Assembly: GCF_003334815.1 (NCBI RefSeq)
Contig: NZ_QOWO01000057.1
Length of the DNA stretch: 13,444 nucleotides
Reading direction: 5' to 3' (one strand)
Source: Escherichia coli
GTDB taxonomy: Bacteria; Pseudomonadota; Gammaproteobacteria; Enterobacterales; Enterobacteriaceae
In this document: positions 2,932 to 5,258 of the stretch, in pieces
Layout: every line of letters starts with the position of its first letter
Numbering within the stretch: position 1 is the first letter of the stretch
Notes under the pieces: model-generated
What the model saw: the letters and a program-made list of their open reading frames with translations, nothing else
Told to the model about the DNA's origin: nothing
The model's database searches: none
Translations under genes and position numbers: made by a program

Positions 2932-4104
2932 TTATGCCGTTTCAAACGTTCCTTTCACGCAGGCTTTGCCGTCTTTGACCATCAGCTTGCCGCGAGCGTA
3001 TACCTGCTCAATGCGTAATTCTGGCGTCATGACCAGTAAGTCTGCGTCATTGCCTGGCAGAATTTCGCCTTTCCCGCTCAGGTTAAGGAAACCGGCTACG
3101 CTACTGGTGAGCGGGCGCAGGGCATCGCTGATACTGAAATCATAATCTTTGACCAGCACCTGCACGGTTTCCAGCAACGTTTCAAAACCGGCAACACCGA
3201 TATGGGTTAAATTCCCTTCGTCATCGAAGAACGGCTGGCTACCGTTGCCGTCGGAGCTGAGGGTGACGCGTGCCAGCGGAATACCCGCCTGAACGGCGCG
3301 GGCAATACCTTCGGCAGGGGCGACTGGTTCGTCAATGCTGCTGGTGATATCGATGGTGCCGCCTTTGCGCGCGAACTCCAGCGCCTGCTCAAACAACGGA
3401 ACGTTGCGGTTAACGTGGGTCGGCAGCAACTTGCTAATCGGCACATCGCAGTTTTCCAGCAGGTCATAGACAGGCTGTAACGCCTTTTTGCTGTCGCCCA
3501 TGTGGAACACGGTGACGCCAGGTTTACCGCCGAGCAAACCGCCAACGCGGGATTCCGCCGCCATATTAGCCAGGTGATAAACGTCCGGTGCGGCAGAACG
3601 GTGATCAGAGATGGCGCATTTCACGCCAATCACGCGATCGATAATCGCCACGTCTTTTTCCACGGAACCCGTAATAGTGCGGGAAGGGACATGATAAGCG
3701 CCGGTCAGCATCCAGGCGCTGATGCCTTCTTCATTGAGCGCACGGGTCTTGGCGAGCAGGGATTCCGGGTGGCGAGAGATAGAGTCGGTGCCCAGCAGAC
3801 CAACCACTGACGTGACGCCTGCTTCCGTCAGACGACTTAACGCCACTTCCGGCGTGCGCGTCGTGGGACCTGCTTCGCCGCCACCGCCAATCAAATGGAC
3901 GTGTTGATCAATAAAACCTGGGCAGAGGATCTGCCCGCTGAGATCGACAACCGTGCAGTCCGGTACAATGTCAGAAGGGATATTACTGGCAACGGCGATA
4001 ATTTTGCCGTTAGCGACGAGGACATCGCAAATTCCCCGATCTTCCGGCGCATACAAATGCGCTCCCTGCAGCAGGGTAAAACCGGCTGCGGTATAATCAA
4101 TCAT
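2932..4104 (-). CDS. iadA: Isoaspartyl dipeptidase IadA (metal-dependent amidohydrolase superfamily)
   Basis: 390-aa ORF MIDYTAAGFTLLQGAHLYAPEDRG... with the HxH metal-binding motif (FIDQHVHLIGGGGE). AAGGAG Shine-Dalgarno 6 nt upstream of the ATG, in the 12-nt gap after yjiG. Confidence 0.9.
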   Translation of the reverse strand: MIDYTAAGFTLLQGAHLYAPEDRGICDVLVANGKIIAVASNIPSDIVPDCTVVDLSGQILCPGFIDQHVHLIGGGGEAGPTTRTPEVALSRLTEAGVTSVVGLLGTDSISRHPESLLAKTRALNEEGISAWMLTGAYHVPSRTITGSVEKDVAIIDRVIGVKCAISDHRSAAPDVYHLANMAAESRVGGLLGGKPGVTVFHMGDSKKALQPVYDLLENCDVPISKLLPTHVNRNVPLFEQALEFARKGGTIDITSSIDEPVAPAEGIARAVQAGIPLARVTLSSDGNGSQPFFDDEGNLTHIGVAGFETLLETVQVLVKDYDFSISDALRPLTSSVAGFLNLSGKGEILPGNDADLLVMTPELRIEQVYARGKLMVKDGKACVKGTFETA

Positions 4105-4116
4105 GGTAACTCCTTG

Positions 4117-4578
4117 TTAAACAATAAGCTGCATAACCCAGATCGACAGCAATGCGTTAATCACGCAGACCGTAATGATATGCGGGTAATATTTGGCATT
4201 CACTTCGGCTGTCCCCAGGCAGCGACCGACATTTTGCACCGGGTTGCCCATTAAATACATCGCGGGCAGTAAAACGGTGACATCGTGACCGGTTAATGCG
4301 CCAGCGGTTGCCAGACTGGCGGCAACACCGACTGCGCCACCCATACTCATTAATGCGGCTAAAAGGACGGTTGCCGCTTCACCGGGTAATCCCCACAGCG
4401 CCATTACGGGTTCACAGATATGCCCCACCCAGTCGAGCAGGCCGGTAATTTTCAGCGCCTGAATGATGACAAACGCCATCACCACGTTTGGCAGCAGGTT
4501 GGTCGTGGCGATAGTAAAGCCACGGCGCGCACCATCGATAAACATATCCATGACGTTTTTGCGGACCTGAGTTGTCAT
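4117..4578 (-). CDS. yjiG: Inner membrane protein YjiG (Gate/nucleoside-recognition domain family, SpmB-like)
   Basis: 153-aa hydrophobic ORF; its ATG overlaps the yjiH stop in an ATGA arrangement (reverse complement of 4575-4578). Confidence 0.8.
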   Translation of the reverse strand: MTTQVRKNVMDMFIDGARRGFTIATTNLLPNVVMAFVIIQALKITGLLDWVGHICEPVMALWGLPGEAATVLLAALMSMGGAVGVAASLATAGALTGHDVTVLLPAMYLMGNPVQNVGRCLGTAEVNAKYYPHIITVCVINALLSIWVMQLIV

Positions 4579-5258
4579 GCTTGCGCTCCTTGCGTTGGGT
4601 TGCGACGTTCTTCGAAGTTAAGCCAGACGCGCAAAATGTTGGCTCCGACAAATTTAAACACCAGGATGACTGCTAAAGGTACGATTACGGACGTGCCCAG
4701 AAAGGCAAACACCGCGACGCCGGAAGAGAAGTAGTTGGTGATAATGGCGCTACCGCTGGTTTGATATGCGGCGAAAATCACTTTATCGCGTTCGGTAATT
4801 TCACCTTCCTGCGCCAGCTCTTTGGTCATACCTGCGGCGGCATCGGTGTTTTGCAGGTTAGCGATCAGCGCCAGCGAGCAGATCCCTGGAATGCCCAACA
4901 ACGGTTTTAGCACTGGCGTCATTAACTGCTGCGCGGCGCGTAATCCGCCAAGACCATCGGTAATTGAAATAATCCCCAGAGAGAGAATGACTGACGGTGC
5001 CAGCTCCAGCGCAAAGAGAAAGCCATCTTTAGCCCCCGCGCCACCCGCGCCGCGAAACGAGGTGGTGGCTCCGTTCGCACCAGGCAGTTGCCCAAACGAT
5101 CCGTTCAGAACGGAAAAATCAAAAACGCGCCACCAACTGTCTGTCCCGGAAAAAACACCGGAAAAAAAGATTATGGTGAGAAAAAAAGCCAGATACCCTT
5201 TAATGCCCACTTTTTCTGTCGCCAGCTCCCCGGCTACAGCATCCCCTTGTTGTGTCAT
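4575..5258 (-). CDS. yjiH: Inner membrane protein YjiH (Gate/nucleoside-recognition domain family, SpmA-like)
   Basis: Membrane-protein ORF; the ATG at 5258 (MTQQGDAVAG..., 227 aa) is preferred over the track start at 5270 because GGGGA sits 5-6 nt upstream. Stop overlaps the yjiG start. Confidence 0.8.
   Translation of the reverse strand: MTQQGDAVAGELATEKVGIKGYLAFFLTIIFFSGVFSGTDSWWRVFDFSVLNGSFGQLPGANGATTSFRGAGGAGAKDGFLFALELAPSVILSLGIISITDGLGGLRAAQQLMTPVLKPLLGIPGICSLALIANLQNTDAAAGMTKELAQEGEITERDKVIFAAYQTSGSAIITNYFSSGVAVFAFLGTSVIVPLAVILVFKFVGANILRVWLNFEERRNPTQGAQA

Follow-up and report, generated by a model that had tools for sequence, protein, structure and literature searches.

The window analyzed in this study, i.e., the whole of a 13,444-nt stretch of the Escherichia coli chromosome, harbors the genes yjiH, yjiG and iadA, in this order, on its minus strand, the first two encoding membrane proteins and the last one encoding a beta-aspartyl (isoaspartyl) dipeptidase. 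We consider it on balance probable that YjiH and YjiG (jointly YjiHG) form a two-chain secondary importer with the fold of the concentrative nucleoside transporters (CNT), which would supply IadA with beta-aspartyl dipeptides. The evidence comes from the anatomy of the genes, the homology between the two halves, their natural fusions, the match to a known fold, the conserved gene order, and the correlation between a short motif in YjiG and the enzyme encoded beside it. The yjiHG-iadA operon itself is already known; new are the function proposed for it, the architecture of split repeats on a CNT fold, and the motif rule.

Gene anatomy and the two halves of the putative carrier

All the coordinates and gene junctions were checked directly on the sequence. 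Over positions 2700-5500, the window shows 100% identity to E. coli Nissle 1917 as well as to several further strains, and this stretch was found in 5390 of the 5426 complete E. coli genomes. The features of the three genes are as follows.

4575..5258, minus strand: yjiH coding sequence, putative first half of the transporter (227 aa, one Gate domain; open reading frame and translation, with the RefSeq ATG at 5258)
4575..4578, minus strand: shared ATGA of 4 nt, holding both the start codon of yjiG (ATG) and the stop codon of yjiH (TGA), read from the sequence (TCAT on the plus strand)
4586..4591, minus strand: AAGGAG Shine-Dalgarno sequence of yjiG, within the 3' end of yjiH and 7 nt ahead of the ATG
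4117..4578, minus strand: yjiG coding sequence, putative second half of the transporter (153 aa, one Gate domain; stop TAA at 4117-4119)
4110..4115, minus strand: AAGGAG Shine-Dalgarno sequence of iadA, inside the 12-nt spacer and 5 nt ahead of the ATG
2932..4104, minus strand: iadA coding sequence, beta-aspartyl (isoaspartyl) dipeptidase (390 aa; translation, TIGR01975 and RefSeq name)
4842..4853, minus strand: codons of the YjiH motif Q-N-T-D (residues 140-143 of the 231-aa open reading frame)
4231..4245, minus strand: codons of the YjiG motif N-P-V-Q-N (residues 112-116; at a helix break in the model)

The longest open reading frame of yjiH extends from 4575 to 5270, where an in-frame ATG would yield a 231-aa protein. 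As the initial annotation had claimed, the end of yjiH and the start of yjiG share the ATGA at 4575-4578 on the coding strand, and iadA follows 12 nt downstream of yjiG with a strong Shine-Dalgarno sequence, the AAGGAG at 4110-4115 being seen in the spacer (4105-4116, CAAGGAGTTACC on the coding strand) ahead of the iadA ATG at 4104. The overlap is limited to yjiH and yjiG, with iadA set apart from the pair by this spacer. In 65 related loci, yjiH and yjiG either overlap by 1-20 nt or are separated by a gap of at most 49 nt, indicating that their tight junction is no local accident. Judging from the spacing, the translation of yjiG may be coupled to that of yjiH, or that of iadA to the pair, and the stop/start codon overlap would keep YjiH and YjiG in step.

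Both membrane proteins belong to the Gate/nucleoside-recognition family as had been annotated, since the Pfam domain Gate (PF07670) matches each of them, at residues 88-183 of YjiH (E-value 2.8e-8) and residues 27-111 of YjiG (E-value 4.8e-12). YjiG also passes the NCBIfam model NF007811 (263.2 bits versus a cutoff of 111). YjiH, at 35.7 bits, stays below this cutoff, and we therefore consider it a paralogous half and not a member of NF007811. IadA passes the equivalog cutoff of TIGR01975 (623.3 bits versus 331.25), and the yjiHG-linked IadA homologue in locus L089 scores 535.5 bits on this model.

In a profile-profile alignment, residues 78-167 of YjiH align with residues 15-104 of YjiG (hhalign 94.6%, E-value 7e-8, 31% identity), therefore each gene corresponds to one copy of a repeated unit. 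When the joined YjiH and YjiG sequences were used as the query against 1.84 billion representative proteins, at least 10 clusters of 374-412 aa were found to match both halves collinearly, in the order YjiH then YjiG (representatives P0242, P0243, P0244, P0245, P0247, P0249, P0251-P0253 and P0258); for instance, residues 8-381 of P0244 align onto residues 19-384 of the joined query. The sole large variable region in the fusion alignment is a linker located exactly at the E. coli gene junction. Using this fusion alignment, AlphaFold2 returned a compact model for the joined E. coli pair, with a mean predicted local distance difference test score of 81.3 and a predicted template modelling (TM) score of 0.76, and in this model the pair appears as a complete CNT-like protomer, including both discontinuous helices. 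The best matches of the model in a Foldseek search are CNTnw and vcCNT (~400 columns, TM score ~0.5), and the sequence profile also reaches CNTnw with an E-value of 0.0075, the YjiH/YjiG junction falling in the loop before the CNT helix 'NVIDAAASGA'. The idea put forward in the initial annotation, that the two proteins are halves of one transporter, is thus supported by the hhalign homology, by the natural fusions, and by the joined pair being predicted to fold as one protomer. In E. coli, YjiH and YjiG would together make up a single secondary transporter of two chains in the inner membrane, with the fold of the concentrative nucleoside transporters and an elevator mechanism, yjiH and yjiG each encoding one of the two homologous structural repeats; with one repeat per gene, the split would be at the loop between the fifth and the sixth membrane helices of the single-chain transporters.

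The Q-N-T-D motif of YjiH is located at a helix break of the model, between the helices 129-140 and 142-154. Across the family alignment its D143 is invariant and its Q140 nearly invariant, and the internal-repeat alignment by hhalign pairs the motif with the S-M-G-G stretch of YjiG. We infer that Q-N-T-D may take part in substrate binding. We also considered whether this motif is the nucleoside-binding G-Q-T-E motif of the CNTs, and rejected this identification, as the HMMER alignment puts the two 1-2 residues off register; we therefore regard them as showing a resemblance only.

Like the CNT/NupC transporters (vcCNT, 3TIJ; CNTnw, 5L24 and 5L26; bovine CNT3, 8TZ1), YjiHG has the Pfam Gate domain and two homologous repeats with discontinuous helices, a hallmark of elevator carriers, and its profile match to them, at the E-value given above, is weak but consistent. 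However, a CNT consists of one chain of ~400-650 aa, while in YjiHG the repeat boundary separates two chains of 227 and 153 aa, and the sequence identity of YjiHG to the CNTs is ~10-16%. The joined model has the single-protomer fold of the CNT/NupC family as far as predicted, namely, a scaffold and a two-repeat transport domain, but YjiHG is not a single polypeptide with CNT-specific flanking domains, the Pfam scan of YjiH and YjiG having returned Gate alone and no CNT-specific N- or C-terminal domain. Because YjiHG has Gate only and is split over two genes, we did not file it as a CNT member. Furthermore, the genomic partners of YjiHG are peptidases, with no nucleoside enzymes among them, and this gene context appears to argue against nucleoside transport by YjiHG.

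An adjacent pair of small Gate-domain membrane proteins is also known in Bacillus, namely SpmA and SpmB, which are encoded by the sporulation operon spmAB and whose biochemical activity is unknown; to our knowledge they have no known substrate. We give very little credence to the view that YjiHG is likewise no solute transporter, but a structural or regulatory membrane component. Although JGI labels several YjiG homologues 'spore maturation protein SpmB', and transport has never been shown for any split Gate-domain pair, the joined YjiHG is predicted to form a complete carrier fold with both discontinuous helices, the family is present in non-sporulating Proteobacteria, and its genomic partners are catabolic enzymes (next section). 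YjiHG differs from SpmA/SpmB in that it occurs in non-sporulating bacteria beside peptidases.

Conservation of the iadA link and the YjiG motif

We scanned 100,044 species, with one genome per species, using two YjiG peptide patterns, and found yjiH-yjiG pairs at 72 species-level loci. According to tblastn, iadA is located 12-148 nt past yjiG in 60 of these loci, and in one more it comes after an inserted M20 gene. Co-occurrence of yjiHG with iadA in other genomes, which had been named as a check on the initial annotation, is therefore seen in 61 of the 72 loci, and these span two phyla, represented by Enterobacterales and by the Negativicutes genera Megamonas, Dialister, Veillonella, Selenomonas, Mitsuokella, Pectinatus, Propionispira and Phascolarctobacterium. 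In Enterobacterales, the cassette resides in at least three chromosomal contexts (beside hypT, between epmB and groEL, and others). Outside the scan, four further metagenomic or genomic cases keep the yjiH-yjiG-iadA order; these include Anaerosinus, a spore-former and a metagenomic lineage without assignment, for which the identity of IadA was confirmed.

Between E. coli and the Negativicutes, the identity is 57-71% for YjiG, versus 52-64% for YjiH and 40-49% for IadA at the same loci (L040-L065). The high conservation of YjiG is compatible with either a transfer of the cassette between gut bacteria or a very strong constraint on the YjiG half. At two loci a gene appears fragmented: the match to yjiG of Citrobacter koseri NCTC10786 (L072) breaks up into residues 1-71 and 98-147, and that to iadA of C. 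amalonaticus (L009) into three overlapping pieces, so that either the genes are disrupted or the assemblies are in error. In two separate Bacillota lineages, a gene for a PAS-domain sigma-54 activator lies divergently just upstream of yjiH (L085, 4121-6109; L089, 2115-4139), suggesting substrate-induced sigma-54 control in those lineages; the E. coli yjiH locus has no PAS-domain sigma-54 activator gene.

Other enzymes take the place beside some of the pairs. Outside the Enterobacter group, pairs without iadA adjoin an M20D amidohydrolase gene (TIGR01891, 258-291 bits). Locus L044 (1861-5490) contains two tandem yjiH-yjiG pairs, with 43-47% and 58-68% identity to those in E. coli, the gene upstream of them being for an MlrC-like peptidase and the one downstream for an M20D amidohydrolase. 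An M20 peptidase gene follows the gene for the P0242 fusion at a distance of 1 nt, and downstream of that for P0244 come genes for a DcuC-like carrier, an M20 peptidase and an IadA homologue (44% identity). More distant pairs adjoin MlrC, M20 and an Xaa-Pro-dipeptidase-like enzyme together, or M20 alone, or an MlrC fragment; the contig of P0379 (<2 kb) holds only the pair and an MlrC-like gene fragment, and that of P0247 (<2 kb) is uninformative about the neighborhood. Throughout the family, the enzyme encoded beside the carrier hydrolyzes peptide or amide bonds and shows no evident signal peptide. For IadA and M20D, we saw no obvious signal peptide on reading the N-termini of the translations, with no predictor run, and the substrates of these enzymes must therefore be brought in. 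The lyase encoded downstream of the operon in L086 was considered as an aspartate ammonia-lyase, i.e., as a link to aspartate fermentation, but this assignment was dropped, since NCBIfam shows the protein to be argininosuccinate-lyase-like (410 bits).

The residues at YjiG positions 112-116 vary with the partner enzyme. They read NPVQN in every iadA-linked pair of the alignment, whereas the M20-linked pairs and most fusions have [AS]-[LI]-x-Q-[YF] at this position. Among the pairs with NPxQN, 62 of 66 are accompanied by iadA and four are not; among those with another motif, nine are accompanied by M20, two by both M20 and iadA, and two by neither. In a neighbor-joining tree, all the NPVQN pairs form one clade nested in an M20-linked grade. 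When the motif was used to predict the neighbor in four unseen contexts, all four predictions were right, iadA being immediately downstream of the genes for the NPVQN proteins P0273 and P0264, and M20 being the neighbor for the QY-type proteins P0296 and P0342. In the model of the joined chain, NPVQN is at the break (342/343) between the helices 328-341 and 344-355, and three residues past the motif YjiG has an arginine that is invariant in the alignment; the corresponding break in YjiH is the one with Q-N-T-D. Substrate sites in elevator carriers are usually found at broken helices. NPVQN may thus contribute to a substrate site at this broken helix, and we regard it as a candidate specificity determinant.

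Proposed function and its alternatives

We propose that the YjiHG carrier imports extracellular beta-aspartyl (isoaspartyl) dipeptides, probably with coupling to an ion gradient. The dipeptides could possibly derive from the breakdown of host or dietary protein, and IadA, produced from the same transcript, would cleave them in the cytoplasm into aspartate and the second amino acid. It is the gene neighborhood that suggests both the substrate and the direction of transport.

Several observations weigh against this proposal. The AlphaFold2 model was built on an artificial concatenation of YjiH and YjiG. The two-pattern locus sample favors close relatives, and the single NPVQN clade indicates that the iadA link reflects one ancestral partner switch that was kept and spread, instead of many independent origins. 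Isoaspartyl dipeptides also form inside cells, so IadA needs no importer, and the published phenotypes of yjiG knock-outs (valine titre, antibiotic fitness and biofilm) do not point to peptides. Moreover, four Enterobacter-group species (L020, L031, L034 and L071) have the order yjiH-yjiG-groEL without an adjacent iadA, therefore the carrier must be valuable without IadA as a neighbor, perhaps via IaaA. In these epmB-groEL loci iadA is cleanly absent, with ~100 nt left before groEL. However, L030, L033 and L039 in the same epmB-groEL context have yjiH-yjiG-iadA-groEL, and since such close relatives retain iadA, we attribute its absence in the four species to secondary loss. Conversely, in the two contexts of iadA without yjiHG that we read, iadA occurs once with a sodium:solute symporter and once alone. 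In a Neisseria species (L076, 3446-7191), iadA (57% identity) comes after genes for a 91-aa protein, a sodium:solute symporter and a creatininase-family protein on one strand, and the class of transporter adjoining iadA there differs from YjiHG.

It is unlikely, although by no means negligible, that YjiHG is a real two-chain transporter with a physiological substrate other than beta-aspartyl dipeptides, and that iadA is in the operon for a looser metabolic reason. Candidates for such a substrate are aspartate or another free amino acid, alpha-dipeptides, gamma-glutamyl or N-acyl amino acids, solely the cyanophycin-derived beta-Asp-Arg/Lys, and nucleosides. The nearest relatives that share the fold transport nucleosides, very similar carriers (YjiG identity 52-68%) are partnered with M20D and not with IadA, yjiHG persists without iadA in the four species mentioned above, and a study of the HutC regulon predicted that a COG3314 protein takes up histidine (PMC5343134). 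On the other hand, the partners across the family are all hydrolases of peptide or amide bonds and never nucleoside enzymes, the switch of the motif matches the switch of the partner enzyme exactly and predicted the neighbor in new contigs, and the Pfam scan gave Gate without the domains that flank it in CNTs. As for cyanophycin, a cyanophycinase (Peptidase_S51) match occurs in none of the Pfam-annotated yjiHG neighborhoods.

Hydrolases encoded together with their transporters are known from other systems. The abgABT genes of E. coli encode the transporter AbgT and the M20 amidohydrolases AbgA/AbgB; compared with YjiHG, this transporter (YdaH structure 4R0C) belongs to another family, is a single chain, and has p-aminobenzoyl-glutamate as its substrate. 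The iaaA-gsiABCD genes of E. coli encode an isoaspartyl aminopeptidase and an ATP-binding cassette (ABC) importer, the assigned substrate of which is glutathione. A second isoaspartyl hydrolase of E. coli is thus also co-transcribed with an uptake system as in yjiHG-iadA, but the transporter is of the ABC type and the proteins are unrelated. In these two systems, as well as in AotJQMP-AotO of Pseudomonas aeruginosa, the transporter is an importer. This argues against YjiHG being an exporter that would, in stationary phase, dispose of isoaspartyl dipeptides or of the product of their hydrolysis by a second route beside IadA, a possibility that we hold to be quite improbable. It would fit the reported sigma-S/Crl dependence of the operon, i.e., the phase in which fragments of damaged proteins build up, and elevator carriers are able to run both ways; but a cytoplasmic hydrolase combined with an exporter of its own substrate would be wasteful, and the layout with up to three peptidases beside carriers in one cluster looks catabolic.

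Among these systems, AotJQMP-AotO (CphZ) resembles yjiHG-iadA in combining the genes of a transporter and of a hydrolase for beta-aspartyl dipeptides, and this transporter is genetically required for growth of P. aeruginosa on beta-Asp-Arg (PMC9974463). Loci for cyanophycin utilization contain genes for cyanophycinase, iadA and a transporter, and beta-Asp-Arg hydrolases are often encoded with importers (PMC9974463, PMC10206079); the Pfam-annotated yjiHG neighborhoods differ from these loci in the cyanophycinase match that they lack. A model of aspartate salvage in E. coli published in 2024 draws an import of isoaspartyl peptides by an unnamed carrier (PMC10857468), and a reference cited therein is given for the presence of beta-aspartyl dipeptides in human urine.

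In a CRISPR interference (CRISPRi) study of 2025, yjiG knock-down was beneficial under at least 10 antibiotics and the knock-out grew slightly better under most of them, and an antibiotic entry gate was guessed for yjiG on weak knock-out data (PMC12063145). It seems to us highly improbable that YjiG, or YjiHG, is a non-specific gate that leaks antibiotics and small molecules and has no dedicated nutrient substrate. The authors themselves describe the knock-out effect as 'not highly significant', CRISPRi on yjiG is likely to be polar on iadA, and the fold is that of tightly coupled carriers and not of channels. In addition, the 65-70% identity that YjiG retains between E. coli and the Negativicutes and the strict synteny with hydrolases argue for a specific function. 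Papers on Salmonella count yjiG or yjiGH among the two-component systems or the biofilm genes but give no functional evidence for this, and a paper of 2026 calls the function of yjiG elusive. We found neither a functional assignment nor an experiment on yjiHG-dependent uptake of beta-aspartyl dipeptides in the searchable literature. The remark in the initial annotation that a transport function of YjiHG is not established therefore still stands, given the word 'elusive' in 2026 and the guess of an antibiotic gate in 2025.

A wider form of the importer proposal is plausible, but we would put it somewhat short of probable: YjiHG may be the founding member of a new class of importers of peptides or amino-acid conjugates on the Gate/CNT fold, made as two half-genes or as a fusion, in which the substrate is reset by the five-residue motif of YjiG. 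As part of this tentative proposal, carriers with NPVQN would take beta-aspartyl dipeptides and those with [AS]-L-x-Q-Y the substrates of M20D/MlrC peptidases, and gut bacteria would gain a dedicated route for scavenging isoaspartyl dipeptides.

The genes yjiH and yjiG are among the remaining genes of E. coli K-12 that lack an assigned function, and they belong to the core genome. If the importer proposal is true, the fold, so far recorded solely for nucleosides and, via FeoB, for iron, would gain a peptide-type class of substrates, and a means of isoaspartyl dipeptide uptake would be identified for enteric and other gut bacteria. As an alternative to the antibiotic gate suggested in 2025, the proposal is also the more specific one. 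YjiHG would be a natural carrier split exactly at the internal repeat boundary, which is useful for studying the evolution of inverted-repeat transporters, and the motif rule provides a concrete and cheap handle for mutagenesis.

Flanking elements of the operon

Two features border the operon.

5259..5507, no strand assigned: intergenic region common to yjiH and the divergent kptA (consensus scan only)
2879..2927, minus strand: hairpin with a perfect 13-bp stem, directly past the iadA stop, within the 64 nt that separate iadA from hypT (RNA fold of -31.7 kcal/mol, z = -4.35)

The genes yjiHG-iadA have been given as an operon that depends on sigma-S and Crl (PMC6469107, PMC3946193), and its promoter has to sit in 5259..5507. 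The sole consensus match nearby on the minus strand has its first hexamer starting at 5514 and its second ending at 5486, so it begins 7 nt beyond this region, within kptA. As the consensus scan yielded weak matches only, we do not claim a promoter for yjiHG-iadA.

No U-run follows the hairpin at 2879-2927. The hairpin may mark the 3' end of the operon or act as an RNA stabilizer. A promoter-like site for hypT (2927 to 2900) overlaps the hairpin. Further on, according to RefSeq for the identical region of Nissle 1917, iraD (1571-1963, plus strand) and hypT (1956-2867, minus strand) are convergent, with their 3' ends overlapping by 8 nt.

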